From Thermoleophilia bacterium (GTDB lineage: Bacteria; Actinomycetota; Thermoleophilia; RBG-16-64-13): 64,000 bases of DNA. Below, piece by piece: positions 11,048 through 48,415 of this stretch (position 1 is the stretch's first letter; each line of letters opens with the position of its first letter). The stretch spans positions 1,389,314-1,453,313 of the forward strand of contig JAOSKU010000001.1 of NCBI GenBank assembly GCA_027493445.1, given 5' to 3'. Position numbers and translations under genes: made by a program. The notes under the pieces are model-generated. The model had not been told where the DNA came from. It did no database searches and saw nothing but the letters and a program-made list of their open reading frames with translations.

Positions 11048-11190
11048 CGTCTATCGACCTCCCATCAGGAATCCCGGACGCCGATACAAAGCCGATCCAT
11101 CATACAAGACCTGACGGACAGACGATTCGTGCGACCAGAGACCGAGGGACGTCAAGCTCGTCTTGGCGACTAGAAACTTCCCGTCCGGAT

Positions 11191-11218
11191 ATTGACACTA
11201 TCACGAGATTGTGCTGGC
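11191..11218 (+). repeat. Site S1: putative Tyr-recombinase site (11-6-11)
   Basis: ATTGACACTAT cacgag ATTGTGCTGGC; 88 bp past the stop at 11307. Confidence 0.7.
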
Positions 11219-11306
11219 ACTCGCCGAATGCACTGCGCCGCTGAGCGACGCACAGATGTGCATTTCGCGGTCAGTCCGCGCATTTGAGGCTGGTGCGAGT
11301 CGTGCG

Positions 11307-12074
11307 CTAGCTCCACGCAGCCCACGTCCGAAGGGTTTCAGCCTCAGGCATGTGGGCGTGGCGCGTGATCGTTACCCAGTAGTACTCTCCGACGAGTTGC
11401 GCTGCCGTTGACTTCGGCCGGCCGATCCTCTCGGCTAGGCCATCCAGGTCGAATCCATGACTCGCACATTGGCCTGCAATCGTCGCGAGGTCATCCCGCA
11501 TCAGCTTGAGGAACTTGATGTAGGCCGCTCCTGACTCGCCCCCGCGAGTCTCTCTCGGATGAGCGCGTCCCAAGGCACAAAGACAGCCGGGCAAAGAGCA
11601 AACAAGGTCTTGGAAGCGGCAGTTGAACCAAACTTCCGCCGTACGCTCGGGGGTTTGATGCCCGAAAGCTCATCGAACGGATCGAGGAAGACTTCGAGCG
11701 CGGCATCGCGGAGGCCAATGAGGCGGTCCTGAGCACCCGGTAGCTCATCTCGATGTCTATGGAACCACTCAGTGAGATCTAGCGAAAGAGGTTCGTGGCA
11801 GTCGAGATCGATGCGACATGTCCACGCATTCAACCAATTGAGAAGGGCCCGGCAAATGGGCGTCATCGGCCAGTGAACCGCTCCGACGATCCACGCCTGG
11901 TGCTCGGTATTCCAAGCGAATCTGAACGTTCGAGAAGCGGTCGTGCAGGAGCCAGGCGAACGCATGCTGGAAGTCGGCCTCCGAGTGAAAGACTCTGCGA
12001 GTGAGACTGAGCTCTTCCATCAAGGCGTGCGCATCAAGACCTTGCTCCGGGAACGCCAGTGGCTGGTTCATCAC
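11307..12074 (-). pseudogene. Chimeric, frameshifted remnant of two hypothetical genes
   Basis: Start resembles the RxxFHSEADFQHAFAW..IRLEY family; the remainder resembles the ALLNWLNAW..GxTAASKTLFAL..PWD family; three frames. Confidence 0.55.
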
Positions 12075-12747
12075 GGACTACTCCATGGCTCGCATTGTCC
12101 GCTCGTTCTCCGCCGATTCTACCGCGTGATCATTGGTCAAGACGGACGTTGGCAGGCGCGAGGGCGGGGCACCCGGGCGGCGAGACGCTATGGCCCCGGC
12201 GGCTCTTCTGCTCGCCCCAACGGATCGAGGCTCTCGGCGTAGGCGAGCGCCCAGCGCAGGTGCTCGCGTATGGCCGCGTCGGAGATGCTCTCGAGATCCC
12301 CTCCTCCAAGTGTGTGGATGGCCGCCTGAACGTAGTCTCGAATGTCTCCTGCGCGGCGCCAACGGCTGACTTCCGCTTCCAGGCATTCTCCCCGACGAGC
12401 CTCTTGGCGGCGACGCTCCTCCTGCTCCGCCCGAAGCTTGGCCTCCTCGCGGCGGCGCAGTTCGGCCTCGCGCGCGCCTTGGGCACGCTCTTCCTCGGCC
12501 CTCCGCCTGAGCTTGAAGGCGAGAGCCACTCGGCTGAGGTTGCCGACGAAATCCGGGAGGCACTCCTCAAGACGCTGCTTCTTGCCGTCTTGCCACTTGG
12601 CGCGCACTCCGAGCCCCGAGGTGTTCGTGAGCTGAAGCGCTAGCTCACCGCTCGGCTGATATTCGTAGAGCCGCGGTTGCCACGCATGCTCCCCCTTCCG
12701 CGGGCTTGGGGGCGGGGGGACTTCAACTCGGCGGACCCCCTCACTTA

Positions 12748-14038
12748 GGGCCTGTCACAAAATAACAGTAGCGAAACCGGCCCGACCGTGCTACGCTTCA
12801 CCGCATGGGTGGAGAGGCCGGCATCAAAGAACGATTCGAGCTTTTGGCCCCCTTCCTAGATGAGCGTAGCCGACGCCTGGTGGCCGCGGCGGAAGCGTTG
12901 GCCGCCGGCCGGGGCGGGAACACGCTCGTGGCCCGGGTGACGGGGGTTTCGCGGCGGGCGATCACGGCGGGATCTCGGGAGCTTGCCCATCCGGACCTCG
13001 CGCCGCGCGGGCGCATCCGGCGAGAGGGCGGCGGACGCAAGCGCACCGTGGACACGGATCCGACCCTTCGCGACGACCTGGAGCGCCTGGTGGAACCGGA
13101 GACCCGAGGCGATCCGGAGTCGCCCTTGCGCTGGACCTTAAAGAGCGTTCGCCGCCTGGCCGATGAGCTCACGCGGATGGGGCACCAGACGAGCCATCGC
13201 ATGGTCGCCGAACTGCTGCACGACATGGGCTATAGCCTCCAGGGGAACCGCAAGACCCGGGAAGGCTCGTCCCATCCCGATCGAGACGCTCAGTTTCGAC
13301 ACCTAAACGAGAAGGTCAAGGAGTACCAAGCCCGCAACGACCCGGTCATCTCCGTGGACACCAAGAAGAAGGAGCTGGTGGGCGACTTCAAGAACGGGGG
13401 CCGAGAACTGCGTCCGAAGGGGGATCCAGAAGCGGTGCGCGTGCATGATTTCATGGTCCCCGAGTTGGGAAAGGCGAACCCCTATGGGATCTACGATCTG
13501 GCGGGCAACCTGGGCTGGGTCAGCGTGGGCACCGACCACGATACCGCGGCTTTCGCCGTGCAGAGCATTAGCCGCTGGTGGCACTCGATGGGTAAAGAGA
13601 GGTACCCCGACGCCCACCGACTCCTCATCACCGCCGACTGCGGGGGAAGCAACGGCTACCGTCTCCGGCTGTGGAAGGTCGAACTGCAGAAGTTGGCCAA
13701 CGAGACGGGGCTCACGATCGGGGTCTCTCACCTTCCCCCGGGCACCAGCAAGTGGAACCGGATCGAGCACCGCCTGTTTTCGTTCATCACCCAGAACTGG
13801 CGGGGCAAACCTCTGATCAGTCACGAAGTCATCGTCAACCTGATCGCGGCCACCGTGACCCGCTCCGGACTGCGGGTGCGCTGTGAACTCGACCAAAACA
13901 CCTACGAGAAGGGCATCAAGGTGCCCGACGAGGAACTGGCCGCCGTGAATCTCAAGCGGGATGCCTTCCACGGGGAGTGGAACTACGCCATCGCCCCATC
14001 CGAGCCACCCATTGGATCATTTATTTCATGACGGGCCC
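12748..14038 (+). mobile_element. ISAzo13-family insertion sequence
   Basis: Imperfect TIRs gggcctgtcacaaaataa / rc gggcccgtcatgaaataa; TTA duplicated at 12745-12747 and 14039-14041. Confidence 0.9.
12805..14031 (+). CDS. ISAzo13-family transposase (intact ORF)
   Basis: ISVDTKKKEL, LLITADCGGSN, HLPPGTSKWNRIEHRLFS motifs. Confidence 0.92.
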   Translation: MGGEAGIKERFELLAPFLDERSRRLVAAAEALAAGRGGNTLVARVTGVSRRAITAGSRELAHPDLAPRGRIRREGGGRKRTVDTDPTLRDDLERLVEPETRGDPESPLRWTLKSVRRLADELTRMGHQTSHRMVAELLHDMGYSLQGNRKTREGSSHPDRDAQFRHLNEKVKEYQARNDPVISVDTKKKELVGDFKNGGRELRPKGDPEAVRVHDFMVPELGKANPYGIYDLAGNLGWVSVGTDHDTAAFAVQSISRWWHSMGKERYPDAHRLLITADCGGSNGYRLRLWKVELQKLANETGLTIGVSHLPPGTSKWNRIEHRLFSFITQNWRGKPLISHEVIVNLIAATVTRSGLRVRCELDQNTYEKGIKVPDEELAAVNLKRDAFHGEWNYAIAPSEPPIGSFIS

Positions 14039-14735
14039 TTAGGTAGAATTCGATGGGTTCACCGTCCACGATCACCCTCGTCACCCGGGCCGGGGTTGCG
14101 GCCTTCTCTCGGAGTCGCGGTAGTCGCGCGGGTGGGGCGTCTCCGCCTCCTCCACCACGGCGACCTCGACCTTGAGCCCGACCCCTTCCAAGGTCTTAAT
14201 CACGGCATCGAAGATCCGCAGGGCGCGATCGACCGACCCCGAGGACACCCGGATATCAAGGCAGGCCTTACGGGCAAGCAAAAGAAGACCGCCGCTCGGA
14301 TGCGCCTTGGCGAGATACCGGGAGGCGAGCACGACAAGCTTATGGGGGTTCTCGAGGGATGCCGGGACGACTATGGGTTCGCTGGTCTCGAGGGGGGCCG
14401 CTTGGCCCGCTTCCTCGGCCCATTCAGGAGGAGTTGGTGGTGGTGGCATACGGTGGACGAGAGCTTGCTGGGGTTGCCCGGGCTTGAGCGGGGGTAACGG
14501 CGGCTTTGCCTCTGCTCTTCCCGCCCGCAGCCTCGCCCAATACCCGCGACCCGGCAGGGGCACGCCCATGCGCCGGCAGGTCTTCCCAAGAGCAACGTCT
14601 GACACGCCATAGCGCTTGGCCACCACCTGGATGGGCTCAGCCCACACCTCCTCGTAGAGGAGGTTGCGGTCGTAGATCTGGCGCTCCTCTGCCATGATTG
14701 TCCCAGTATAGGCCCGGATCGTGGAGGGTCGGCAC

Positions 14736-15515
14736 ATGCAAAGCTACGCGATCGAGGTCGCTCACAAATACGGCATGCGGGAGAAGGTCTCACCCGGAGA
14801 GCCGCTCATTCAGGTGCAGGTGCTCGAGAAGGCCGGCAAGCGTGGTCAGGTGAAGGTCCGGCGTCTCTCCGAACCCAACGCCGGCTTGGAGGATTGGGTG
14901 AAGACCCGGCAGCTCATCGTGCCTTGGGCAGAGCGCCAGGCATTCCTCAAGGACGAGGAGCGAGAGGGGAAGTTTGACGAGGCCCGCCCGAAGCCAAACC
15001 AGGCTCTTTCTGGCGCAATCGAGACGGTCATGTACGCAACCGGATACGATGACGCAGGCGCCGACGACGACGGGACCGTCCACATGGACGCGGCCGAGCT
15101 ACGGGAGATCGCCCGTCTGTCCGGCCTTCCTCAGAAGCTCGAAGACCTCCATCCCCTGGCGTACGTCGATCGCCACGGGGACCTGCACCTGCCCCTCGAG
15201 GTCGCCGAGCAGCTGGCCCATGCCTACGCGAGCGCTGAGTCAGAGTCCGTTCTCATGTACATCGAGGACCAGGAGAAGGAGTACAAGTACCGCGGCAATG
15301 AGCCGGGCGAGCGATTCTGGCATGATGAGCTGCGGAGGCGCATGCCGGGCTTTGCATTGGCGCGCTACTGGGCCGGGCATGAAGAGGAGATCGCGTACCT
15401 GCGAGCGGAGATTGAGCGGCTGCGCGGCCTGGTCGTCAGCGCTGCCGATACGCTCTCGAGCAAAGGGCTCTGGGCTGAAGCCGGGCACATCCGGCTGGCT
15501 CTTCAAGGGCGATAG
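14736..15515 (+). CDS. Hypothetical protein
   Basis: 259-aa ORF with GGAG RBS; no family recognised. Confidence 0.6.
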   Translation: MQSYAIEVAHKYGMREKVSPGEPLIQVQVLEKAGKRGQVKVRRLSEPNAGLEDWVKTRQLIVPWAERQAFLKDEEREGKFDEARPKPNQALSGAIETVMYATGYDDAGADDDGTVHMDAAELREIARLSGLPQKLEDLHPLAYVDRHGDLHLPLEVAEQLAHAYASAESESVLMYIEDQEKEYKYRGNEPGERFWHDELRRRMPGFALARYWAGHEEEIAYLRAEIERLRGLVVSAADTLSSKGLWAEAGHIRLALQGR

Positions 15516-15643
15516 GGGTACACATTCCTGGGCCCCGACCATGGCCTCTCCCCCATGTCCCGCAGCAGCGCACAAGGACCGATCACCTGCGCAGCCTGCT
15601 CCGTTTATGGGTCGCGATATCGGCCAATACTGCATCCTTGGAT

Positions 15644-15671
15644 ATTGACACTATGAACGGATGGTGCTTCG
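15644..15671 (+). repeat. Site S2: putative Tyr-recombinase site
   Basis: ATTGACACTAT gaacgg ATGGTGCTTCG; shares GGATATTGACACTAT with S1; 52 bp past the stop at 15724. Confidence 0.72.
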
Positions 15672-15723
15672 GGCACCTACCCTGCAGCGGCACAAACACC
15701 CGGCACTCGCCACTCGGCCGCCG

Positions 15724-18250
15724 CTACGTCGCGCTCGGCTCCTCTGGACGCACGCCGAGGATCCAGCCCTCTACCCGCACGACGGCCTCCTGGTCTTCTC
15801 CGGGGAGCGCCGAGAGGTCGAACAGGCTCGCAAGCTGACCCTCATCATCAAGCCGAGCGAAGTGCTCGGCCAAGGCCCGGACCTGGCCGGCGTCCTTGAC
15901 CTCTGCAAAGGGCGAGGGCGGTATGAATGAGGGATAGATCTCCGCATGGACGATGAGCGGACCGCGGGGGGCGGAGAGGTCCTCCCCAGCGATGGCGGTC
16001 TCAAAGGGCCAGACACGCGAGAGGGGACCAAGGACCGCATCGTCGCGAAGCGCGAGCAGGCGAGGGATGCCAAGCAGGGCCTGGCTGCCCACCGAGCCCG
16101 CGCCGTAGAGCTGCCAGGGAGACTTGGGGCCCACCACCTGGCCATCGCAGAGGCGGTACTCGGGGATCCCTCCGGGCCAGGGGCGCGGCTTGGTTCTCTT
16201 AACAGGCTGCTGAAAAAGTCCCCCGCCTAGCCCTCCGATTGCCTCAACTTCCTATCTTTTTGCGCCCCTTTTTGGTAGTGTTTACCCTGCAAACTGGCAT
16301 AAAGCGAGGGGGTTGGGATGCGGGGAGAAGAGGCAAGGCAGCCGTCGTTTGTATTCTTGGGTCCCTTGGAGGAGCGCATCCCCAAAGATCACCCCTTGCG
16401 GGCCATCCGCAAGATGACCGATAAGGCGCTTTGCGGTCTCTCCCCCCTCTTTGACAAGATCTACTGTGAAGCCGGCCGCCCCTCCATCCCGCCCGAGTAC
16501 CTTCTGCGAGCCCTGCTTATTCAGGTGCTCTACGCCATCCCTTCGGAGCGCAAGCTCTGCGAACACCTCGAGTATCACCTGCTCTTTCGCTGGTTTGTGG
16601 GCCTCGATCTAAACGAGCCCGTCTGGCATCCCACCACCTTCACCCAAAACCGGGAGCGCCTGCTTGAGGGCGAGGTGGCCGAGGCCTTCTTCCTGGAGGT
16701 GAGGAAGCAGGCCCAGGCGGGGAAACTCCTTTCCCGGGAGCACTTCAGCCTGGACGGCACCTTGGTGGAAGCGGCGGCCTCCCTCAAGAGCTTCCGGCCC
16801 AAACAGGAATTGGCCGAGGGCCAGGAGGGCGGCCGGGGGCCAGGCAAAGATGACCCGGGTGCGGGGAGGACCCGAGCCCCGCCGAGCCAGTCTCGGAAAG
16901 CGCAGGCCGCGACCGCAACCCGAGTGTGGATTTCCACGGCGAGCGGCGCCGGAATGACACCCACGCTTCCACCACCGATCCGGAAGCTCTTCTTGCCAAA
17001 CACTCTCCCGGAGAAGCGGCCCGGCTCGCTTATGCCGGCCATCTCCTCACCGAGAACCGCCACGGTCTCATCGTCCAGGCCGATCTCTCCCGGGCCACCG
17101 GTACCGCCGAGCGGGAGATGGGTCTTGAGCTGGTGAAGGAGGAGCGCAAAAAGACCAAGGGCCGGTTCACTGTCGCAGCCGACAAGAACTACGACACCAA
17201 GGACTTCGTGGGCGAACTACGGACTAACGTTGTTACCCCGCATGTGGCTCGCAAAGAGAAGTACTCGGCCATCGATGGCCGCACGACACGGTGGGAGGGA
17301 TACGCCCTCAGCCAGAAGAAGCGCAAGCTGGTGGAGGAGGCCTTCGGCTGGATGAAGACAGTCGGACTGCTTCACAAGCTCCGGCACCGCGGGCGGGCCA
17401 AGGCCCGATGGATCTTCCAGTTCACGGCCGCCGCCTACAACCTGGTGAGAATGAGATCGCTGCTTCCGGAGTGCATCGCCAGATAGGGAAAAAGGGGCGG
17501 GGAATCGGCCTCTCCAGGGGGCATAATCCCGGTCTTCGCCCGGGCAATCCGAGAACCGACCGTTCGTGGGTCAAGCAGCCGAGCAACGGAGCACATCGGA
17601 GGGGCTCCAACCGGGGTATTTCAGCGGCCTGTTAAGGGAGGCACCCGCCTTGCTCTGGGGGCAGCCCCAGAAAGGAGCCGGTCCCCCGGTGAGGGCGCCG
17701 TTGAGCTCGGCGGCCACCTCGAAGCGGTTGTTCTTGTTGTCGGGGTGGTCCTCGACCAGGCCCGCGACTTCCTCCCAAAGAACGCGCCAGGGACGGTCGG
17801 CCGCCACTCCCAGGCGCTCGGCCGTACCCCGGGGAAGCCGTAGGGGAAATCAAAGCCCACCAGCACGCGCTGGCCTTGGGAGAGAAGACGGGTCAGGGAG
17901 GCCCGAACCTCGTGCAGACCTTGTTCCCGGGTGGGCGGGTTCTCTAGCAGCACCCGGCCGGACTCAGGCTCATGCAGGCACCACCAGACACTGTCTTTTC
18001 CCGTCTTGGGCCGACTGTTGGCACTCCAGTCCACCATCAGGTAGGCGTCGAACAGGGTGAGGGCGTCAGGTCTTCTGTGGGGAAGACCGCCGGCGGTCTG
18101 GCGCACGAGGTAGTCACGCAGGATGGTTTTTCGCCCCGCTCTGGCGAACCTCACCGTGACGACGTCGCCCCGCACCTCCTCGACCAGGCCCTGGCCGAAG
18201 ACCTCATGGGAGACCTCATCCCTCGGGCTGATGGGGGTCTCGCCGCTCAC
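15724..18250 (-). pseudogene. PcrA-type Tudor-like domain fused to a DUF429-like predicted nuclease; split by IS5
   Basis: N-terminus VSHEVFGQGLVEEVRGDVVTVRF; FDAYLMVDWSA, VGFDFPYG, PFWGCP, GSVGSQALLGIP, HAEIYPS motifs. Removing the IS rejoins GASLKRTKPRP. Confidence 0.65.
16203..17631 (+). mobile_element. IS5-family insertion sequence; transposase 16318-17486 with one frameshift
   Basis: TIRs CAGGCTGCTGAAAAA / rc CAGGCCGCTGAAATA; TTAA duplicated at 16199-16202 and 17632-17635; GRPSIPPE, HFSLDGTL, ADKNYD motifs. Confidence 0.9.
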
Positions 18251-18520
18251 CTACATGCGGTGGTCTCGTGGTCGCTGCGCCGATGGCGCCCCTTGCTGGT
18301 TCATGAACCTACCCTAGCAGACGGAGGCAACGAGAGGGAAAGGGGTCTGAACTCAAGGGGAGAAAAGGTCGGCTCTGGCTCGGCCGGCATCGTTGGCCGC
18401 CATACGCGTAGGATGCCCGAGGGTGATGGCCCCGCCAACCGGCAAGACCGCGGAGCAGCAATGGCCGATCAAGCGCCCGGCCCCGTAACCACGGGAGACC
18501 CCGCCGCTTCACTCTTGGGA

Positions 18521-18548
18521 ATTGACACTAACTGTTGATGGTGTTCTG
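18521..18548 (+). repeat. Site S3: putative Tyr-recombinase site
   Basis: ATTGACACTAA ctgttg ATGGTGTTCTG; 85 bp past the stop at 18634. Confidence 0.72.
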
Positions 18549-18633
18549 CCGGGTCGTCGGTTTAGCACGTGGGTGGCAGGAGCGCCGGGGGCCGACCACG
18601 CGACCACGCTACGCGCCGAATCGAGCGACTCAC

Positions 18634-21600
18634 CTACCGCCTTGGAAACAAGGGCTTCCAGCCACCCTTGTCCGACCACAGGATGGGGAGCGAGTTATTC
18701 GGACATCCGCGCTCGAACACAACCGCTAAGTCTAGGTTTCCATAGCCGAGAGGATGTTTGGGCTCCAGCTTTGCCCCCAAAATGCGTGGCATTCTTGCGC
18801 GCCAGTTTCCTTTGGTCATCCTCCTCAAACACCGTCCCCTCCTCCGAAAAGAGCTTATCCGCCTCCGATAGCAGCTGAACGTTTCTTACCTCAACGGGCC
18901 ACCCTCGGCGGTCGACCTCCTGCTCCACTCGTGACCATCCAGCAGCATCCGCCACCAGGGCCACGAAAAGAACCCGGAGTCTTCGTTCCTCTGCCAGCCA
19001 CGCTAAGAATGACTGGGACTCCTCGAAATAGCTCAGCACCTGTTCACCTGTGCCAACGAAGTCATCCAAGAATAGGACAACCTTGACACCATCGCCCTCA
19101 CGGACGAAGGCCTGCAACTTGCCGGCCTCCACAACGTTGCTACTGTACAGGTCGGCCTCATCTGCAAAGACCCGCGCCAAGTCCGAACCGCTCTTGCCAA
19201 AATCGCCCAGGTAGCTGACACAAACGTCGGCCCACTTCCTCCGCTTGCTAACTACCTGCCGCTTCAGATTGCGGCGAACCATCGCATCCACCTGGCCCAT
19301 CAGGCTGCGAAGTTCGCTTTCGCGGTAGAAGCGAACACCTCTTAGAATGTTGAACATGGCCCTCTGAGCCTCGTGACGGTCACCGAACTGCCGGAGCCAC
19401 TCCATTACGGCTCCCTCCGTGATCTCCTGGCCACGGTATCTCCCACCCCAGCCCTGGACTAACCGGCGAATCTCGTCTGGCTTGACTCTAATAGACTCCG
19501 CCCGGAGACGCTCCTCTGCTGCCTCATCCCGGTATTCCGCAGGTCCGATAATCGCGTGAACTCCCTGACTTGCCAGCCAGCGGCCGAATAGCGGCACCTT
19601 GAAGTCAAACGAGTCCTCCTGGGGTTCGACCAACACACCCCGGGATACAAACTCGCGCAGTTCGCCCTCTACGGAAGGGACACCAGCCGCAATGCCTTCC
19701 TTCTGAACAGCTTCGATCGTGCATGGAAACGCGCGCGTACAACAGTCAGAGACAGCGACCAGTACCTTGCGCCGGTTAAGGGACCTCTCGTTTCGGAGCA
19801 CGCCCGTGTCGAGAATCCCGTCCTCCCAGAAGTGTTGAAACGAGTTGACCTCGACCTCCTCGGCAGTATCTCGAATCGCTGCCGAGACTTCTGTGTCCGT
19901 GATATGTGAGTCCCGAGACACCAAGACTCGGTTGATGATTCTCTGGCATATCAGATTACTGAAATAAGGATTGCCAGCCGTTTCTTGATGCAAAAGCACC
20001 AAGGCATCATCGCTGTACTCTAGTCCGGTAGCCGGTCGCTGTACAAGTGTTTCGAACTCACTCCTGTTTCCGAAGTAGTCCACCTGCATCACATCCCACT
20101 TATTCAGCCTATACCCTTGCTGGTGAACAATCTGATTCATCTTTTCGCCGCCGACTATCATGAATCCAACATTTTTTCGGTTGCTGATACTCCTCAGCGA
20201 TTCAAAGAAGGCGTCTCCGACAACATCACGAGAATAGAGCACCGTTGGTAAAGAATCGAACTCATCAAGCACAATGACAAGCCTAGCGTTATCAGTCAAT
20301 TCAGCCAAGTCATCCACAAAGTCGGATAATGGGTTCAACGCGTGTTGATCAAAGTTAGGAACCGCAATTGACTTGGCGCGCTTGTCTTCACGGGCAATCG
20401 ATCTACACAACTTGGTTCCCAAGGTCGAGACTGTTTCTTCTCCAGTCGCATGAACAAAATCCCCTGCCTCAAGATATGCCACGATGGATCCTTGGTTCCT
20501 GAGATGCCTCGCGACAGTCTGTGCCAAGGAAGTTTTTCCAACTCGCTTCTGACCTTTGATGATTGCCGAGCCAACCTGAGTCCCGGTAAAGACCCCAATA
20601 AGCTTGTTGAGCAACTCTTTGCGACCTACAAGTCTATCTTCGGAGTCTACGGGCTCTAGCGAATACGGATTCGCTCGCTGCAGAGCTTCCCAGTCCACGT
20701 CAGGTGACTGAGCTTCCAGTTCGACGATCTCCTCTTTCTTGTGCTCTGAACCATCAAAGTCGCGCCAGGATACAACAGCTTCAATGATTGGGGCGCCACC
20801 AGTCACTTGCAGTCGCGCCGGCAGGGCAAGACCAGCAGGCTGCCTCGGAGCCATTAGCCCGATCGAGATGGCCTTCTGAAGCAGAATGACGGAGGCATCG
20901 GCCTCAACCTCGACAGCCACGTCATACGCGTATCCGGGCCCTTCGTTGATGACAATGAAGATTAGGTCAACTGGGGCTTGCTCAATATGAAAAGGGTACT
21001 TCTTGCCCTTCTTCTCCAGCCTGACGTCTGCAGGTTGAGCAGCCTTGTTTTGGGCGAAGTCATCCTTCGTCTGACGCAGTACCTCATCGCACAACGAATC
21101 ACGCAGGATTGACGAATACCTGGTAATGTAGTCTTGAAGCGACCCCCTGAGCGCCTCGCCCGCGTCAACTACCCCTCGATAAGCTTCTAGCGCCGCGGCC
21201 GAATCCCGGCTCTCGATGTACATGTCGACTCTCTCGAACAGCTCGCCGGTTCGGGCCTCCCACTCTCTGGGAAGAAACGGCTGGACAAGGGTCGAGGCCA
21301 CGTCCAATCGAATCGTCTTCATGAATGCCTGCCGCTGCTTCCTGAAGCCACCGAGAGAAGTCGGCGCCGTCAGACTCATTGAGTAAGCTTCATCATAATG
21401 ATCCACGGCCGTCGCGGCTTTCGCCAGCTTCTCATGAGCCTGGTCTTGCCCGCAAAGCCCAAGATCCTGTGCCACCTTGTGCGGGAGTCGACGCTCAAGG
21501 TAGTTCAGTACGTCCTGACGCCACTCGGACGTGTTCAGCCAATTCGCGGCTGGATGCGCCAAGAGTCTCAGAATCGCCGCGGTTAGCACTGACTGATGAT

Positions 21601-21808
21601 TCGGAACACCCGTGCCTTTCAGAGTCTGCTTGAGCTCGCCTGATGCCTCTGCGCGGACAACCGACAGCCCCATCCCCTTGCACAGAACATGGGAGACATC
21701 TTCGGGATCACCTGTTCGGCTGCTATCGAGAAGACATTCATCAACCAGGCAAGCGAACTTCATGGCTGACGACCCACCGACGTTCGGCGGGAACATTTCC
21801 GGCAACAT
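18634..21808 (-). CDS. Multidomain P-loop ATPase (STAND-like) with C-terminal phosphoribosyltransferase (PRTase-CE-like) domain; +1 frameshift in a homopolymer near 18775
   Basis: NPYSLEPV..LVGRKE, Walker A GQKRVGKTS, Walker B IVLDEFD, PRPP loop VLFLDDFVGTGEQ, tail GYG..VVF..CPNNSLPILW; GGAGG RBS before 21808. Confidence 0.8.
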
Positions 21809-22015
21809 TTCCCCTGTCCTCCATGTCAGTAGACACGACCCATACTGGCTGTCTCGGTTCGCCGGTGGTTGACGGAACGCACACCCAGGGAGCGAGAGCT
21901 TCTCTTGGCTCTACCGAAATCCTGGAATCACAAGGCGTGGGTCGGCAGTGAAGCACCTCCTGCCAAGCAATGGATTGCTGTGATTCTGTCAGTTCGGCTG
22001 TTCTCAATTCAACCA

Positions 22016-22043
22016 AGAGATACTACCGCAGAAGGGTGCTCTC
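22016..22043 (+). repeat. Site S4: putative Tyr-recombinase site (degenerate)
   Basis: AGAGATACTAC cgcaga AGGGTGCTCTC; 28 bp past the hsdR stop, at an apparent GC step. Confidence 0.55.
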
Positions 22044-22071
22044 ACAGCCCGCTGCACCGGGCTCGTCCCAC

Positions 22072-25218
<3,147 letters not shown>

Positions 25219-25308
25219 CGTCAAGAAGTCACGTCCTGGTCCTGCCTCGGACACGCGTATAGTATTGCACGCCGCTCTCACGATCGAGCTCGACGAGTGC
25301 CTTGGCCA

Positions 25309-28294
<2,986 letters not shown>

Positions 28295-28400
28295 CGTACA
28301 TCGTCAGCCGGACGGCCGAAACCTGAAACCAGCGAACGCGCGGGAACGGAAAGACGCGAGAAAACGTAGCCGGGGTGCCGGAGGCAGCTAGCCGCCCGAC

Positions 28401-28428
28401 CCCACCACTACCAGGTCATGGTGCTCTG
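28401..28428 (+). repeat. Site S5: putative Tyr-recombinase site
   Basis: CCCACCACTAC caggtc ATGGTGCTCTG; 21 bp past the stop at 28450. Confidence 0.62.
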
Positions 28429-28449
28429 CGCTCGCCAAAACTGCATCAT

Positions 28450-29646
28450 TCAGAACGTCGGCACCTCCGGTTTCAGGCCCGCTACCCCGGCCAGGGCGAG
28501 AACCATCCGCCCGTAGAACCAGGAAAGCAACTGAAGATCCGCCATTTCCTGGGCCGTTGCTGGATTGTCCCTCTCGGCGGGAGTCGGAACCCAGTCAGGG
28601 TGCGCGGTCGAGTGACGAATTCGGCTGAAGCTCCGGAGAACGTCGTTCTTGACCGCCTTCCACGCTGAGCCCAGGTAGTGCTCTTGGAAGTCTTTCAGTC
28701 CCTTCTCCACTGTCCACGACTGGTTCGGCCTCGATAGCGGCTTCTCGTAGTAGCTCCGCAGTGCCGCCTCGAGCCACGTGCCCACCATCAGCTTCCGCCC
28801 GTACCAAGTGGGCTGCTGGTTGGCGGCCATCATGTGCTCAGACGCGCGCTCGATGATCCACTGCTCCTTCGACGGCTTGACCAGCCGTTGCACAAGCGCC
28901 CAGAACAGACCCGCGGGCACCGTCATATCCAACTCGGGGAACATACTGAGGAACGTGAGGACTACGGGGGTCGGTTTCTTGGCCACCTCGATGTAGGTGC
29001 ACCTCCCCCGCTCCACGCTCGACTCCATGAGCCATACCTCTTGACTGGCGAGCAGCGCGAGAGCCACTCGGATTGCCCGCGGTAGGCGTCGGGCATTCTC
29101 CTTTGTGAACCGGCCTCTATCCATAGTTGCGGTTACTTCTAGATATGGCTCTTCCTTGACGCGGCAGAGTAGGTTCACGAACCTGGTCTCGATCTGCAGC
29201 GCCCTCATAGAACCGGTCTTCTCCACCACTCGGTCCGCCACTGAGAAGCTGCCGGTCACCGCATGCGGCAACACTGGTGTCTTGACGAACTGGTACTGCC
29301 CACTCACAAGGTGTCGTGACAAGGCCCCCGGGTCCTTGATCCTCTCGATGAACAGCGCCCTGGGCGCTTCCACGGTAAGTCGCCCGTGCGCCTCGAGGTC
29401 GAACTGGTTTGCGAGCGGCACCGCCGGAATGAAAGCGCGACGACCATCCGTGAGCTCCAGTCGGAGCGAGGAGTACCTGTTCGCGGGTATCAAGCCATGA
29501 ACCATCTCGGAGAACAGCGGGGGTCTCTGAACGGACCGATCAACCAACAGGTCTACTTCCAGGCGCCCTGCTGCTTGCCAGCGCAAGACCCCCTCCCCCG
29601 CATCCAGGCGTCGCGATAACGGAAAGTACCGTCGTCGACGGTCCAT
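28450..29646 (-). CDS. Hypothetical protein with a C-terminal HEPN-like Rx4H motif (ApeA-like architecture)
   Basis: 398 aa; beta-rich N-terminus, helical C-terminus containing FSRIRHSTAHP. Confidence 0.5.
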   Translation of the reverse strand: MDRRRRYFPLSRRLDAGEGVLRWQAAGRLEVDLLVDRSVQRPPLFSEMVHGLIPANRYSSLRLELTDGRRAFIPAVPLANQFDLEAHGRLTVEAPRALFIERIKDPGALSRHLVSGQYQFVKTPVLPHAVTGSFSVADRVVEKTGSMRALQIETRFVNLLCRVKEEPYLEVTATMDRGRFTKENARRLPRAIRVALALLASQEVWLMESSVERGRCTYIEVAKKPTPVVLTFLSMFPELDMTVPAGLFWALVQRLVKPSKEQWIIERASEHMMAANQQPTWYGRKLMVGTWLEAALRSYYEKPLSRPNQSWTVEKGLKDFQEHYLGSAWKAVKNDVLRSFSRIRHSTAHPDWVPTPAERDNPATAQEMADLQLLSWFYGRMVLALAGVAGLKPEVPTF

Positions 29647-29766
29647 TCTTGGTTCTGGCGTATATCTCTCAACGCGCAGGCCTCCCCTTGGTCTCGTCAG
29701 CGCGGCCCGCTGAGCAGCAAATGGGACCCGCCGCGCTCGCGCGACCCCCGGTGCTCACGACTTGCT

Positions 29767-29798
29767 ATTGTCACCATGGGAGCGAACATGGTGACGAC
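29767..29798. promoter_or_regulatory. Site S0: dyad related to S1-S7 with a 10-bp spacer, upstream of the recombinase gene
   Basis: ATTGTCACCAT gggagcgaac ATGGTGACGAC; perfect 8-bp inverted repeat GTCACCAT/ATGGTGAC; left arm 9/11 identical to the S1/S2 left arm. Confidence 0.6.
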
Positions 29799-29821
29799 GA
29801 CTCTATCGCAAGGAGACCACC

Positions 29822-30757
29822 ATGCGCTCGACCGCTGTCAGCTACCCCATCGGATCGTTGGAAGGCTGGGAGCGTTCGCTCATGGCCTTCCTGGTCGAGA
29901 AGGAACGCCGCTCCGGTTCCCGGCGCACGGTGGAGAGCTACTCCCGCATGCTCCAGGACTTCTTCGGGCGGCTGGGCAAGGCTCCCGACAAAGTGACCGC
30001 CCAGGAGGTGTTCGTCTGGGCCCACGCCGTCGGTGTCTCCGGCAGGGACCCCTCCCCCATCACCATCGGCGCGCGCATGGCCTGCGTGTCGTCGTTCTTT
30101 CGTTTCCTTCAGCGCATGGATATCGTCGACAAGAACCCCTGCGATCGGCTGGAGCGACCCAAGACCTCGCCCTCTCCCCCGCGTGGGCTCACGGCCGACG
30201 ATGTACGTCGCTTACTGGCGGTCATCCCCGACACGCCGGTGGGTCTACGCAACCGCGCTCTGATACTCACGCTCGTACTCACGGGCCGTCGCAGGGCCGA
30301 GGTATTCCGCATGACCGCGGGCGACCTCTCCATCGAGAACGGCACCTGCTTCTACACCTACAGGGGCAAGGGGGCGAAGACGGGACGCCGCGAGCTGCCC
30401 CTACCTGCCGTCGACGCGCTCAGGGCCGCGCTGCGGGCCTTCGGGCGCGAACTGGAGGACATGTCCCCGGAGGAGTCCCTCTGGCCCTCAGGGGCGGGCA
30501 CCGGCCGTGGCCTCACCTCGGGCACCTTCTACGCCCAGCTTAGGCGCTACCTAAAGCAAGCCGGTCTGCCAGCGGCCGGGGTGCACATCCTGCGCCACAC
30601 GGCGGCCAAGCTCAGGCGGGATGTCGGCGAGTCCATCGAGGACGTGTCCCGCTTTCTGGATCACTCCTCGCTCGCGGTGACCACGACCTACCTCCGGCGG
30701 CTGGAAGGGCAGGAAGATCTGGGCTGGGGGCGGGTGGCGGAGGCTATCGGGCTGTGA
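29822..30757 (+). CDS. XerC/D-like tyrosine recombinase (intact, 311 aa)
   Basis: SAM-like N-domain (RRTVESYSRML); catalytic residues in TGRRRAE, GKG, HILRH, LDHSS..TTTY; AAGGAG RBS. Confidence 0.92.
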   Translation: MRSTAVSYPIGSLEGWERSLMAFLVEKERRSGSRRTVESYSRMLQDFFGRLGKAPDKVTAQEVFVWAHAVGVSGRDPSPITIGARMACVSSFFRFLQRMDIVDKNPCDRLERPKTSPSPPRGLTADDVRRLLAVIPDTPVGLRNRALILTLVLTGRRRAEVFRMTAGDLSIENGTCFYTYRGKGAKTGRRELPLPAVDALRAALRAFGRELEDMSPEESLWPSGAGTGRGLTSGTFYAQLRRYLKQAGLPAAGVHILRHTAAKLRRDVGESIEDVSRFLDHSSLAVTTTYLRRLEGQEDLGWGRVAEAIGL

Positions 30758-31361
30758 GCGTGCCTTGGCCGAGCAGGAGCGCAACCACCACGACAAGCAG
30801 CACGAGGGCGATCGCTTCACACCCTAACGCCGCGACGAGAAGCCAGGACTTCATATTGTTCGCACGCTGAGCGCCGCGCAGGAGAGCAGCCCGTGTGGCT
30901 GTGGTGCGCGCCAGCGCAGACGTACTCGTCTCCCCCCAGTGTGCTTGCATCATAGCCAGTGTAGTGGGTACGTCGATCTCCCGATAGCGCAATGGGAGGT
31001 TGGTCGCGAGCGCCAGAAGCGCCGCAAAGAGAAACGCAGCAGCCGTCGCCACGAGGAGCGGGGTGACGCTCGCAGGCGGGCCGTAGTCCTTCTGGCTCGT
31101 GACAACCCCGGCTACGGCAAGAAGGAGTGTCGCGAGCGCGCCAGCCGTCGTGATGACGATAATCCCGCGCTGCTCCAACGAGGCCTTGCGCGCCTCTTGA
31201 GCGTCGAGCCGCTCCGTCAGGAACGTGCTGTAGACCTCGTCCCCGTCCACGGCCTGCTCCTCGTCGCGGCTCAGATTACTCGTCGCGCGTGCGTCGCTCC
31301 GTGGCCGGCGGCGCCGCCCTCCACTCCGGGCGCGTAGGAAAGCCTTCCCAGGGATCGTCAC
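30744..31361 (-). CDS. Hypothetical membrane protein (start uncertain)
   Basis: Three hydrophobic segments; convergent with the recombinase gene. Confidence 0.5.
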   Translation of the reverse strand: MTIPGKAFLRARSGGRRRRPRSDARATSNLSRDEEQAVDGDEVYSTFLTERLDAQEARKASLEQRGIIVITTAGALATLLLAVAGVVTSQKDYGPPASVTPLLVATAAAFLFAALLALATNLPLRYREIDVPTTLAMMQAHWGETSTSALARTTATRAALLRGAQRANNMKSWLLVAALGCEAIALVLLVVVVALLLGQGTLTAR

Positions 31362-31585
31362 CCGGCGACGAAGGCGGTGTGATGGGGTTGGTCTCCTGTG
31401 GCGGAGACCCCGGAGAAGGCTGATGCTCTTCAGGCTCGGTCATCGTCCAGTCTCCCGGGTTGGGTACCTTAGCTGTCCCATCCTAGTCCCTCGGTTCGTA
31501 CCGAGTCAACAAGCTGGAGCAGGCAGCAGAGGGCGCGCCTGTTTCAGGACTAAGCCAGTGGCGGCCGACTCTCCAGCCGGTGCGT

Positions 31586-31613
31586 GTCAGCACCATTTGG
31601 TCATGGTCCTGTC
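31586..31613 (-). repeat. Site S6: putative Tyr-recombinase site, inverted relative to S1-S5
   Basis: rc GACAGGACCAT gaccaa ATGGTGCTGAC; 50 bp past the stop at 31664. Confidence 0.6.
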
Positions 31614-31663
31614 GTGTTCGTCCCTGACCACGATGTGGTATGAGACGAGAAGATGATGTTCTT

Positions 31664-32502
31664 CTATGGAGCATGGCGCCCAAGAGTCTGCGTGCCGGAC
31701 CTGACGAGGCACTGGGATGGGAGAGGCAACCACTGCCGTCTTCGGGAATGGCTGAGACTCGCTCCAACCAGGCAGTCACGCTTTCTTGAGCGAGCGAACC
31801 CCCACGCCACAGTTATTTCGTCCGTTGATCCATCGGAGTCGTCGACGAGATGCACTTTCGCAAGGCGCACAGGGCCCGGATTGGTGACGGGTGTCTCCAA
31901 GGCCGAGACGATTCTCTTGCCCTCCAAGCCCCCAGCTCTCGAGTGCTAGCCAAGCCCCGGATCGTCGTCGATCGAGCGTAGGAATCCTGAAGGGCCACTA
32001 CATCGACTATCCGAGCAAAGCGTGCCGCGGTAATCAGTCCCCTGTGGGTCAATGTCTGAGATGCAAAGACAACCGCATACTCAGACTCCTGGTCCTCCGG
32101 CATCGCTAGAACTTCTCTCTCTGCCTCGTCAGGCTTGGGAAGGTAGTGGTAGCCCGGAATAGGGAGACCCTTCCTGAACGCATCCCATGGGCCCTCCTGC
32201 CATTGCTCGGGAGTGACAAGAGGAGCGACAACCAACCGCGAGTCCTCGTCGTGGGCTTGTTGAATCTCGCAGCTCTGGCTGAGGACAACCACAGGTCCCG
32301 CCCACACTCGGACACAGTAGTCCCCGAGTGGCCCGGAACCCGCCAGATGCTCATCGTACTCGCCGAATTCGGGAAGTTCGGCAATGCTCAGCCGGCCTGG
32401 CCACCGACGACCGGCACGGGAAGAGCAGAGCTGGGCGAAATAGGAAACCGCCAAGTCGCCCTGCCGAACGGTCTTGGCCGAGGGTTTCTCGTATCGGGTC
32501 AG
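31664..32502 (-). CDS. PemK/MazF-like putative toxin with C-terminal extension; frameshift near 31940
   Basis: RQGDL near a probable CTG start overlapping the upstream stop; GPVVVLSQSCEI..RLVVAPLVT resembles the PemK fold pattern. Confidence 0.5.
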
Positions 32503-33458
32503 GCGTCCTCCTCCATTGAGTCAAGAACTGCCGCAATTTCCGGGTCTTTCCAATCGTCCGATCGTGCGACGGGAGCGACGTGATTTGCACGGGAACGTGC
32601 AAGCAGGGCAAACAACTCAGCCGGACTCTTGAGGGAGTCATAGCGTGCCTCGGGAGGAGGCGATCCCAACGCCCTGCCTGGAGATGCTCTTGTGGCAGAA
32701 GTGAATATGCGAGCAGGCCGACGTTCGGCCGCCGTTTCAACTCTGGCCTTGAAGTCATCCCATGCCTCGGCTTCAAGGAGCTGGAGGGGCGACGGCTCCC
32801 CGTGTCGGAGCCAGGTATGCAGGTCAAGCGGACGCCAAGCTCTGATCACCGAGAGAACGTCCTCAAGTCGAGACAGCCTAGCCATATTCCTCTGACGGGG
32901 GCGGGTAGTCGCTGCGCGCCACGTGAAGACTGTTCTCTCAGCAATACCAAGCAACTTCGCAACCGTTCGGTTGTCGACCCCAAGCATGTCCTGCAACCGT
33001 TGGATTCGCGTCATCACTGTTGGCTCGGCAGCCACCAACGATGCACTGGAGCGGGCCCAAAGCTCGTGATACATGGCTGCATAGTTGGGGGTCGTGCAAG
33101 GCAGGGATTCAAGGCACTGCACGCGGCGGTTTCGACGCTGCGCGAGGCTGTGATAAAGCGACTCAATCCCTCCTCGACCATAATAGTCCACGAATACAGT
33201 TCCACTTGGATTCCAGTCCGTGACGGAGCCTTCGTAGCTACCCGGGATAAAGTAGGCCATTGGCGAATCGGTGAACGTTTCCCAACTTGCGGTTGTGCGA
33301 TGCACGGGACTCATCCATAGAGCCTCTGTCTGCTGCGCTTCACCTTGAGCAGGAGTGCACGGCCACCTGTCGGCCAAATAGGCACCCACTGCCCATTGCG
33401 CCCTAAAAGCAGTCCAACCCGTTTCCCGAAGGGGAGGGGCACTAGCCGGTACGCTCAT
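32499..33458 (-). CDS. Xre-type HTH protein with possible antitoxin C-domain and long N-terminal extension
   Basis: LQDMLGVDNRTVAKLLGIAERTVFTW (HTH); WLRHGEPSPLQLL; ATGA overlap with the upstream gene. Confidence 0.6.
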   Translation of the reverse strand: MSVPASAPPLRETGWTAFRAQWAVGAYLADRWPCTPAQGEAQQTEALWMSPVHRTTASWETFTDSPMAYFIPGSYEGSVTDWNPSGTVFVDYYGRGGIESLYHSLAQRRNRRVQCLESLPCTTPNYAAMYHELWARSSASLVAAEPTVMTRIQRLQDMLGVDNRTVAKLLGIAERTVFTWRAATTRPRQRNMARLSRLEDVLSVIRAWRPLDLHTWLRHGEPSPLQLLEAEAWDDFKARVETAAERRPARIFTSATRASPGRALGSPPPEARYDSLKSPAELFALLARSRANHVAPVARSDDWKDPEIAAVLDSMEEDA

Positions 33459-34267
33459 TTCGCAACCTCTTCGCCGCCAAAGTCTCGAATCAGCGCGTCT
33501 GTCACCGAGCCGCGGAAGAACGACCAGACGGAGTCTTTTAGGGACTGGAGAGTAGGAAAGATCACGTCCTGTCTGAACGCCCCCCTCGCCTGTACAAAAG
33601 CGTCAATGTCCAAGACGTACATGAGACCACCCTCCGATGGGACCACGCCATGCCTGATATTCATACGATCGTCATTGAGTTCCAACAGCAGCTCCTGCAA
33701 TGATTGCCGTAAGCGAGGAATGATTGTCTCTTCTCCGACTACTCCCACCAACGAAGGTACAACATACTCTAAGCATGTACCATTATCGGGAGGGAGCATT
33801 TCATTCACGTAGCGGATCCCGATTCGTTCGTAGTACTGCACTTCGTGAGAAGACACCAAGCTATCGATCGCGAAGCTGAAGCGTTCAGAGAATTCTTCAA
33901 ACCGCGAATACTCGGTTGTTTCTAGACTGATAGCGTCCGGGGTGAGAGCTACGAGCCAAGCTCCGGACGCGTCGCGGAAGCGATAGGGACCCACGGCGGC
34001 GAAGTTCAAGCCTGGGACATCTAGTCGAGGCACGCCCTCATCTCTGGGGATGGCCATGGGGTACTGGGGCGAGACAAGTTTCTGGAACTCACCAACACTG
34101 GCGGGCTCCTCAAGAGCATAGAGATGAGGAAAGCGCACCTGGGCGATCACTGTCCGAAGGGGATTCCGCGCGAAACGCATACGGGCCCGAGGCTCAAAAC
34201 CCTTGAATGGCATGTACTCCCTCCTCGATTGCAGTATCACTGCATCCTCCCACACTGTACCCGCCAA
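33455..34267 (-). CDS. TIGR04255-family protein
   Basis: FARNPLRTVIAQVRFP, YRF..DASGAWLVAL, TTEYSRFEEF, RIGIRYVN, YVLDIDAF pattern. Confidence 0.75.
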   Translation of the reverse strand: MAGTVWEDAVILQSRREYMPFKGFEPRARMRFARNPLRTVIAQVRFPHLYALEEPASVGEFQKLVSPQYPMAIPRDEGVPRLDVPGLNFAAVGPYRFRDASGAWLVALTPDAISLETTEYSRFEEFSERFSFAIDSLVSSHEVQYYERIGIRYVNEMLPPDNGTCLEYVVPSLVGVVGEETIIPRLRQSLQELLLELNDDRMNIRHGVVPSEGGLMYVLDIDAFVQARGAFRQDVIFPTLQSLKDSVWSFFRGSVTDALIRDFGGEEVAK

Positions 34268-34417
34268 GGCAACTGCAAAACGCTGCTGTTAGTAGGCGCG
34301 TCGCGTAATGAGCGTGCCCCGTCAGACGAGCGGACCCGCTGGTGCCGCCTTTCTCCGAGTCTTGTCCAGTCCTGTCCAGTTGGCTATGCTGCGTCGAGGG
34401 GCGACTCAACCAGAACG

Positions 34418-34445
34418 CTACGCACGATCGCCTCATAGTGGTTGG
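34418..34445 (-). repeat. Site S7: putative Tyr-recombinase site, inverted relative to S1-S5
   Basis: rc CCAACCACTAT gaggcg ATCGTGCGTAG; left arm nearly equals that of S5; 35 bp past the stop at 34481. Confidence 0.6.
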
Positions 34446-39111: not shown

Positions 39112-39605
39112 TCGTTGCTCTTGTCGGGCTCCGCGCCCCTGGGCCCCAAGAGTTCGCCCAAAAGCGCAGATACGTTTCCCTGGACTTCGATCACCCGGCG
39201 GGCCTTCTCAAGCTCGGCCTCGGTGCGCACCAGGCGCCGGCGCAGCTCGACATTCTCCTTCTCCAAGGGATCCGCCGATTTGCGGCCTCGGGCCCGGGAA
39301 AGAGCCTCCAGGGCACCCTCCTCCCGTTGCCGGCGCCACTTGGTGAGGTGGGAGGAGTAGAGGCCCTCCCGGCGCAGAAGAGCGCCCACCTCACCTGGCT
39401 TGGTGGCGGCGCCGGCTTCCTCTAGGATGGCCAGCTTGTAGGCGGCGGAGAAGCGCCGCCTGTTTGCCCGCTCCACCAGCTCTGGGTCAGCCGTGACCAC
39501 GGGCATGCAGGGCTCGGCCTTCCCCACAGTGCCCTCGCCCACGCCTCCTGGCGCCTCACGGCCACCACCATTTCTCTCGAACAATGACATCTCGGATGCT
39601 CCCAT
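39108..39605 (-). CDS. IS3-family transposase OrfA
   Basis: RRRFSAAYKLAIL..LRREGLYSSHLTKWRRQ HTH plus coiled coil. Confidence 0.88.
   Translation of the reverse strand: MGASEMSLFERNGGGREAPGGVGEGTVGKAEPCMPVVTADPELVERANRRRFSAAYKLAILEEAGAATKPGEVGALLRREGLYSSHLTKWRRQREEGALEALSRARGRKSADPLEKENVELRRRLVRTEAELEKARRVIEVQGNVSALLGELLGPRGAEPDKSNE

Positions 39606-48338: not shown

Positions 48339-48415
<77 letters not shown>

Follow-up and report, generated by a model that had tools for sequence, protein, structure and literature searches.

A candidate cassette platform of short dyad sites linked to a Xer-like tyrosine recombinase in Actinomycetota and Chloroflexota

In integrons, a divergent tyrosine recombinase gene has a recombination site by its promoter, and the cargo leads outward, each gene followed by a site. 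These attC sites are imperfect palindromes of ~60–130 nucleotides that fold as single-stranded hairpins and carry R and L boxes (RYYYAAC/GTTRRRY). Integrons are, to our knowledge, rare or absent in Actinomycetota and Chloroflexota. In the pdif modules of Acinetobacter, short sites of the 11-6-11 type with a 6-bp spacer bound discrete accessory modules; these plasmid-borne sites have one arm for XerC and a different one for XerD, point in alternate directions around the modules, and use the host chromosomal Xer pair. The Xer protein of dimer resolution is normally one (or one pair) per chromosome and acts at a single dif site. Shufflons and phase-variable hsdS loci (Rci/sfx; CreX/ivr) combine a tyrosine recombinase by restriction-modification genes with multiple short sites, and invert coding segments via intragenic inverted repeats. 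Finally, in engineered recombinase-mediated cassette exchange (RMCE) with heterospecific lox or FRT sites, incompatible sites that differ only in their spacers flank a segment that is stable yet can be swapped with a donor carrying the same pair.

Here we describe a locus that can be compared with each of these systems. It lies in a 64,000-nucleotide stretch of DNA, hereafter the window, from a Thermoleophilia bacterium of the Actinomycetota (assembly GCA_027493445.1, contig JAOSKU010000001.1, positions 1,389,314 to 1,453,313 of the forward strand), a metagenome-assembled genome of ~65% GC that comes, as a 4.6-Mb contig, from bioreactor metagenomes. An intact gene for a Xer-like simple tyrosine recombinase of 311 amino acids (29822–30757, + strand) stands there among seven short dyad sites, S1 to S7, with gene modules between them. 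On comparative sequence evidence we consider it probable that the whole is a recombination-site cassette platform of the linked recombinase; we infer that the enzyme binds and cuts the sites and that exchange needs matching spacers. The specific logic proposed below, in which modules are exchanged between incompatible slots, is more tentative, and we hold it to be possible rather than probable.

The sites belong to a family that recurs beside homologues of the recombinase. We collected the neighbourhoods of 80 homologous recombinase genes (1.22 Mb; individual loci bear L numbers) from Actinomycetota and from Dehalococcoidia, Limnocylindrales, and Chloroflexia, the last three of which belong to the Chloroflexota. 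In these loci the dyad CACYAT/ATRGTG occurs 22 times with a spacer of six nucleotides and at most once at every other spacing from 0 to 15. A matrix of the arms gives 114 matches of at least 14 bits at N6, compared with 2–14 at N4, N5, and N7–N10. The arms are near-palindromic, and the cores comprise 18 bp with unrelated flanks. Sites of at least 13 bits are concentrated upstream of the recombinase gene (66, versus 9 downstream; 1.23 versus 0.15 per 10 kb, an 8-fold difference), and 23 of 75 loci have a site 60–140 nucleotides upstream of it, beside a -35-like box (TTGACTT/TTGCTTTC). Where the source database provides gene calls, all eight sites are intergenic; by cruder in-house calls on the fetched loci, 57 of 74 are. 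The recombinase is the only protein conserved beside the sites. An earlier note on this DNA, made from the letters of the window, had described the recombinase gene as diverging from the left array and had suggested a matrix scan of homologous neighbourhoods. Both points are borne out: the sites are enriched there, are specific to N6, and are 8-fold denser on the divergent side.

In the window, all seven 28-nucleotide sites of the earlier note were located at the coordinates it gave, S1–S5 on the + strand and S6 and S7 as reverse complements. We scored them with an independent matrix built from the arms alone of 22 perfect sites in the recombinase neighbourhoods of other genomes. S1 (CACTAT-cacgag-ATTGTG; 11191–11218, + strand; 19.8 bits) is the last detectable site of the left array. 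S2 (CACTAT-gaacgg-ATGGTG; 15644–15671, + strand) scores 23.3 bits, and its spacer class, GAACGG, also occurs in L008 and L094, distal to other sites there. S3 (CACTAA-ctgttg-ATGGTG; 18521–18548, + strand) scores 20.1 bits. The degenerate S4 (TACTAC-cgcaga-AGGGTG; 22016–22043, + strand; class CGCAGA) coincides with a step in GC content and has an extended right arm, GGTGCTCT, that matches that of S5; its spacer recurs after a CAGGCC site in L005, a locus with an 81% identical recombinase. S5 (CACTAC-caggtc-ATGGTG; 28401–28428, + strand; 16.8 bits) is the first slot boundary, and its class, CAGGTC, is the first or proximal one also in L009, L016, L023, L028, L040, and L094. S6 reads CACCAT-ttggtc-ATGGTC on the + strand (31586–31613) and scores 16.0 bits on either strand; TTGGTC is the class that proximal sites have in the Limnocylindrales loci. 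S7, which on the + strand reads CACGAT-cgcctc-ATAGTG (34418–34445), scores 15.1 bits on the - strand and 10.0 on the +.

The independent matrix recovers six of the seven sites (S1, S2, S3, S5, S6, and S7) among only nine positions of at least 9 bits in the 64-kb window, and the other three positions (23446, 35462, and 40610; 12–18 bits) are all within coding sequence. At 15 bits or more it returns these six sites and two coding positions. The spacing is again specific, with 11 matches of at least 14 bits at N6 versus 0–2 at N4, N5, and N7–N10. S1–S3 form a true repeat family of ~37 nucleotides (D1), and the pattern TTGACACTA-N7-ATNGTG has three exact matches in the window where 0.07 are expected. 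A matrix trained on S1–S3 ranks S4 5th, S5 7th, S7 20th, and S6 48th of 127,946 positions; conversely, one trained on S4–S7 ranks S2 6th, S3 8th, and S1 9th in the window. These results leave very little room for the weakest alternative, that S1–S7 are AT-rich look-alikes gathering by chance and composition in the intergenic DNA of a GC-rich genome: S4–S7 were first picked by eye and AT-rich words are commoner between genes, but the spacing specificity, the recovery by an independent matrix, the 8-fold asymmetry, and the recurrence of spacer classes described below make it extremely improbable.

The earlier note placed every site 21–88 bp past the stop codon of a minus-strand gene, which holds for S1 (88 nucleotides), S2 (52), S3 (85), S4 (28), S5 (21), and S7 (35), while S6 is at ~162 nucleotides. 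The GC steps it saw by eye at S3/S4 and S6/S7 are real: computed GC is ~0.51–0.58 in the S3–S4 interval and 0.56–0.60 in the S6–S7 interval versus ~0.65 elsewhere in the window. It also read S6 and S7 as inverted. Orientation is hard to call with near-palindromic arms; from the arm flanks alone both sites may be inverted, and judged by its spacer class S6, with TTGGTC on the + strand, has the usual direct orientation.

The 6-bp spacers group into discrete classes that recur across genomes. The 96 sites compared include 101 pairs with identical spacers, versus 2–9 pairs for five of six flanking control 6-mers; the sixth (22 pairs) overlaps the conserved promoter beside proximal sites. The 72 non-proximal sites yield 43 identical pairs, compared with a mean of 2.9 and a maximum of 11 when columns are shuffled. 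The main classes are GCCGCG (nine sites), CAGGTC (eight), TTGGTC (six), CGGGTG (five), CGGGCG (three), and TGCGCC (three). Sites of the same class have unrelated flanks, and in every locus the classes keep one direction with respect to the recombinase. Within one array, all spacers differ.

The classes also keep a rank outward from the recombinase. In Limnocylindrales the order is TTGGTC/TCTGTC, GCCGCG, CGGGYG, and CCGCGC, and in three loci of one Chloroflexia genome TGCGCC precedes CAGGTC. The order CAGGTC before GAACGG is found in the window and in L094, and CAGGTC before CGCAGA in the window has a counterpart in CAGGCC before CGCAGA in L005, the slot holding a type I restriction system in the former and a type IIG system in the latter. 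No violation of rank occurs among the compared loci, which may share ancestry, making the comparisons partly dependent. From the fact that all spacers in the window differ, the earlier note had deduced relaxed spacer homology. That deduction finds no support: the spacers belong to classes that recur in a fixed order, and therefore point to strict matching within a class and incompatibility within an array.

Sites lie at the borders of modules and at the points where homology between loci breaks off. In six of six pairs of Limnocylindrales loci, BLAST homology begins within or at the proximal site and stops at the recombinase stop codon, and between paralogous loci of the same genome it likewise spans only the interval from proximal site to recombinase stop. 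The conserved recombinase module is thus ~1 kb, and the cargo between sites is non-homologous between loci. L009 and L011 have flanks that are 97.5% identical (downstream, by purH), recombinases that are only 79% identical, and different DNA just past the gene. Recombinases this divergent in near-identical backgrounds indicate that whole recombinase modules have been replaced.

Two loci carry what we regard as insertion signatures. In L013, an insert of 1.4 kb has an intact TGCGCC site on one side and, by the recombinase promoter, a decayed copy of that site on the other; in L094, two CAGGTC sites, one intact and one decayed, enclose a module. Both inserts are consistent with classical spacer-matched insertion, the recombination itself being deduced from the arrangement of the sites. 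Moreover, a cassette common to L013 and L020, which belong to one genome, starts exactly at the left arm of a CAGGTC site. A search for same-class duplicates within loci at a threshold of at least 3 bits found none.

The recombinase fits a simple two-domain tyrosine recombinase, with a Pfam Phage_integrase match (1.8e-18), a weak Phage_int_SAM_1 match (20.9 bits against a cut-off of 22.3), and catalytic R..K..HxxR..H..Y residues that are invariant across 18 homologues. The XerA, XerC, and XerD models score it at 94–99 bits, far under their cut-offs of 220–335 (330–335 for XerC and XerD), and the best match in the PDB is XerD (1a0p, 5e-15). Integron integrase models score lower still: TIGR02249 (NCBIfam) gives 39.5 bits against a cut-off of 265, and PRK15417 gives 29.3 against 435. 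The earlier note's description of an intact, XerD-like enzyme is therefore sound in that all catalytic residues are present and the closest models are XerA, XerC, and XerD. By profile scores, however, the protein classifies as neither IntI nor XerC/D. Thousands of homologues exist at 60–86% identity, and single genomes hold several divergent paralogues, each with its own array and different flanks. This differs from Xer/dif dimer resolution and from integrative mobile elements exploiting Xer (IMEX), with which the locus shares the nearest recombinase models and the arm-6-arm layout. The inner arms of dif (...CATAA/TTATG...) also differ from CACYAT/ATRGTG, the comparison being with the familiar dif sequence.

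Upstream of the recombinase gene in the window is an element of the form ATTGTCACCAT-N10-ATGGTGAC (29767–29795, + strand), so that an N10 dyad takes the place of the proximal site. The right half, GAGCGAACATGGTG, also precedes homologous recombinase genes, where it is conserved and follows a TTGACTT-like -35 box. At a spacing of six nucleotides, the element reads as a degenerate left arm followed by GCGAAC and then by ATGGTG, an arrangement seen also in L008 and L011. It is probably a promoter, an operator, or a decayed proximal site. In two metagenome runs, a 94-nucleotide unitig within the recombinase gene (29937–30030) shows ~1.5 times the depth of its neighbours, consistent with a stretch common to this gene and P0002, an 85%-identical paralogue that the same genome probably carries.

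We propose the following explanation. The sites would be double-stranded core sites of the adjacent recombinase, with inverted arms of 6–9 bp (CACYAT/ATRGTG) around a 6-bp crossover spacer, and the recombinase gene with the proximal site by its promoter would constitute the conserved module of ~1 kb. The row of unlike, mutually incompatible spacers on the divergent side would split the locus into slots, each spacer class being common to other genomes and keeping its rank from the recombinase. Modules would enter or be replaced when a resident site recombines with a site of the same class on incoming or circular DNA, one event inserting a module and two events exchanging a slot. Unlike spacers within an array could guard against self-deletion, and an incoming element with the same sites in the same order could exchange entire defence modules, one slot at a time. 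Such loci might amount to a natural cassette-exchange standard in Actinomycetota and Chloroflexota, a recombinase plus incompatible sites whose classes and rank are conserved across phyla; we put this forward as a conjecture, a little less likely to be right than wrong.

Several observations weigh against this proposal. No site was detectable at L006, L007, L021, or in the Dehalococcoidia group L030–L044. In a metagenome-wide scan with the site class CACYATCAGGTCATRGTG, only six of 80 loci carried a recombinase on the predicted side and strand within the available flank; 15 of 80 carried additional sites, and the remainder were indistinguishable from the chance matches expected at that database size. 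The conserved order of classes could in part reflect common descent of the arrays instead of a functional rule. S4 is degenerate, scoring only 4.4 bits with the matrix from other genomes. Two modules of the window carry insertion sequence (IS) copies, which fits a fossil array. Lastly, assembled (Logan) contigs of seven metagenome runs, dating from 2020 to 2023 and coming from several studies, cross S1–S7 and contain no alternative junctions, joints, or loose ends, although contigs hide rare forms. The earlier note supposed that the recombinase inserts, excises, or shuffles cassettes at the sites. None of these events is seen in the contigs of this organism's populations; what speaks for them is the comparison between loci.

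The alternative that survives best is that the array in the window is a fossil, a once-active platform that is now inert and whose recombinase is kept for another role or has yet to decay. IS5 and ISAzo13 copies inside two modules, the degenerate S4, the N10 variant at the proximal position, and the identity of the junctions in all sampled populations favour such a history, and the array may well be static at present even with an intact recombinase gene. On the other hand, the recombinase frame retains all catalytic residues and has no frame errors in short-read contigs, and five of the seven sites still score 16–23 bits. We give the fossil reading a substantial chance, slightly under an even one. 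It bears only on activity at present and does not conflict with the proposed platform.

A second alternative, which we consider unlikely, is an integron-like platform in which insertion occurs at the proximal site and any two sites recombine with relaxed homology (single-strand exchange that replication then resolves would be one route), so that cassettes are freely excised and shuffled. The topology is that of integrons, with a divergent recombinase, a promoter-side site, and outward genes each followed by a site, and the spacers within one array are all unlike. Yet free shuffling predicts neither a conserved order nor recurrent classes, and both are present; in addition, the inserts in L094 and L013 show the same spacer class duplicated on both sides. 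The earlier note called the system integron-like while remarking that attC cores were lacking. The latter remark agrees with our results, the sites being 18-bp dyad cores of double-stranded type, with arms of only ~6–9 bp and no folded attC-type hairpins. Membership among integrons is contradicted both by this and by the integrase model score, which falls far below its cut-off.

Slightly less probable again is the possibility that the sites are operators or insulators, bound by the recombinase acting as a regulator or by some other factor, and that the cargo is swapped by homologous or illegitimate recombination. In its favour, the arms make up a dyad such as many operators have, the proximal site touches or overlaps the promoter of the recombinase gene, and recombination products are absent from the contigs of the sampled populations. 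A regulatory role would not account for homology breakpoints exactly at the arms or for inserts flanked by duplicated same-class sites, and a strict 6-bp spacer with discrete classes shared across phyla is the signature of a crossover region. Nor is any protein other than the recombinase conserved beside the sites, and a consensus scan gave no sigma-70-type promoter at any S site.

Compared with the described systems, the proposed platform resembles integrons in layout, in its defence-enriched cargo, and in being mostly chromosomal and sedentary. Sedentary chromosomal integrons that store anti-phage cassettes have been described (bioRxiv 10.1101/2024.07.02.601686). The enzyme here is not IntI, however, the sites are double-stranded dyads of 18–28 bp instead of single-stranded attC hairpins, the modules are often multi-gene operons of 1–6 kb, and the spacers form discrete classes of fixed order, a feature that integrons lack. 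The pdif modules resemble it in their Xer-core-like layout of short sites bounding discrete modules; in contrast, the arms here are near-palindromic, the recombinase is dedicated and linked, and the sites, mostly chromosomal and alike in orientation, follow an order of spacer classes. Near-palindromic arms suggest that one protein acts on them. RMCE offers a parallel to incompatible slots, but it is a laboratory design, and a natural counterpart is what we would deduce from the arrays. Shufflons and hsdS loci differ in that the sites here are intergenic, between whole unrelated modules, and the window has one hsdS gene only. In a full-text literature search, no published account of a gene-swapping platform of this kind came up.

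If the proposal is correct, the loci would add a third type of gene-cassette platform to integrons and dif modules, would be a natural counterpart of RMCE with heterospecific sites, and would supply a mechanism for the assembly and turnover of defence islands in two large, mostly uncultured phyla. The recombinase family together with CACYAT-N6-ATRGTG would serve as a search key for new defence systems in metagenomes, and a compact recombinase with a ready set of orthogonal 18-bp sites might become a genome-engineering tool. It would also raise the question of whether bacteria use site incompatibility to stabilise arrays and yet keep them exchangeable.

The platform is mostly chromosomal: close matches to the recombinase number one among 2.9 million viral contigs, and plasmids yield one match at 37%. 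A ParB-methylase gene recurs ~8–10 kb downstream of related recombinases (in L012 and probably in L038, where a look-alike stands at the same offset), which suggests a shared integrative-element backbone. In the window and some relatives the platform rides on integrative elements, a route by which arrays can meet. The Dehalococcoidia loci L030–L044 consist of a unit of ~4.3 kb with a 63–65%-identical recombinase; the unit is 96–100% identical across genomes and is repeated within genomes. These units have no canonical sites, and some copies retain a decayed TGCGCC element by the -35 box. The unit looks like a separately mobile derivative. L056 and L057 might have been taken for two copies in one genome, but on contig JBCLDE010000003.1 they mirror each other with 100% identity over 20.9 kb, and we rejected the pair as a palindromic assembly artefact.

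The genes of the window were read after correction against short-read contigs of the same organism, from three or four runs in each comparison, which revealed single-base homopolymer errors at 11538, 16862, 17830, 18774, 29588, 31798, 31928, and 47478. These errors produce false frameshifts in several genes. The earlier note saw coherent units bounded by the sites, and this holds, the units consisting mostly of defence-type genes; it did not mention the IS copies that interrupt the S1–S2 and S2–S3 units and the + strand orientation of one S1–S2 gene. Leftward from the recombinase the order is Module 1, S5, Module 2, S4, Module 3, S3, Module 4, S2, Module 5, S1, and a REase-ARP gene. Module 1 (28450–29674, - strand, after a +C correction at 29588) encodes a protein of 407 amino acids whose family was not recognised, the uncorrected 398-residue version having no Pfam match and the corrected 407-residue version no NCBIfam match. 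Module 2, between S5 and S4 (22072–28294, - strand), is a type I restriction-modification operon, hsdM-hsdS-hsdR, with a single hsdS gene. Module 3 (18634–21808, - strand) is a low-GC gene for an AAA/STAND-type ATPase of 1057 amino acids fused to PRTase-CE, its frame mended by dropping one base at 18774. Module 4, between S3 and S2 (15724–18250, - strand), is a DUF429-type gene split by a multicopy IS5-family element (16195–17639) with 21-nucleotide inverted repeats and ~13-fold depth. Module 5 (11307–15515) comprises a + strand gene of 264 amino acids, a gene of 218 plus 139 amino acids split by a multicopy ISAzo13-family element (12747–14039; ~4-fold depth), and a gene of 219 amino acids.

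Rightward from the recombinase are a gene for a predicted membrane protein of 205 amino acids (30744–31361, - strand; no family match in Pfam or NCBIfam), S6, a low-GC triad (31776–34267, - strand), S7 (CGCCTC), and a gene of 472 amino acids. The triad encodes a TIGR04255 protein (270 amino acids; 5.2e-36), a helix-turn-helix protein (319), and a protein of 226 amino acids. Its reading frames overlap and have a GC content of 0.56–0.60, and it is a candidate toxin-antitoxin-like or defence triad.

In other loci, the cargo is mostly on the strand leading away from the recombinase, each gene group followed by a site. L020 has its cargo on the + rather than the usual - strand, and its upstream sites score on the strand opposite to the usual one. 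In L005, a gene for an SMC-like ATPase, a site, a gene for an MmeI-like type IIG enzyme, and another site follow one another; L085 has an Upx-like gene, a site, and SNF2 with an MmeI-type methylase; L088 has hsdRSM and two unknown genes, a site, and a core gene; and L094 has a gene of 198 amino acids, a site, an MmeI-like gene, and further on a CD-NTase gene. The commonest families among 83 cargo proteins are N6_Mtase, Eco57I, AAA_21, ResIII, MmeI, and HSDR_N, and PADLOC matches include type I, II, and IIG restriction-modification, mad2, AriA-like, and LmuB-like proteins. Overall, the cargo is rich in type I, IIG, and ISP restriction-modification, SMC and AAA ATPases, cyclic-oligonucleotide-based anti-phage signalling (CBASS), and Upx-like genes, and part of it is clearly non-defence.

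The array sits in an accessory island of ~43 kb that adjoins tRNA-Met (48339–48415) and contains genes for an integrase, a Toprim/AAA_25 replication protein, the ParB-methylase, and several defence genes. The integrase by tRNA-Met (46740–48054) is not a broken gene, its frame being intact once one base is dropped at 47478. Besides the IS5 and ISAzo13 copies, the island has an IS3-family transposase gene split by a group II intron (35974–39605), with the reverse transcriptase/maturase at 36687–38108 and the Rfam domain V at 36580–36679. An Rfam scan of the window at gathering thresholds found only the tRNA and the group II intron.

Some minor features of the sites were also noted. A search of the window for decayed same-spacer partners of S1–S7 found none. 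The TTGACA hexamer in S1–S3 was considered as a promoter and rejected in view of the consensus scan; it belongs to the left arm and its flank. S1–S3 were likewise rejected as IS ends, the IS borders being elsewhere (12747–14039 and 16195–17639). A look-alike, CACTAT-ggaagc-GTAGTG, at 40610–40633 lies inside the ParB-N/DNA-methylase gene and is kept as coding sequence in L012 (19089). Finally, the left flanks of S1–S3 share ~15 extra conserved bases (CTTC..C.TTGGATATTGACACTAT; 11177–11213, 15630–15666, and 18507–18543) while their spacers differ. This pattern of like flanks and unlike spacers is the reverse of that found across genomes, and the shared flank may be a 5' end that the three modules to the left of these sites have in common.

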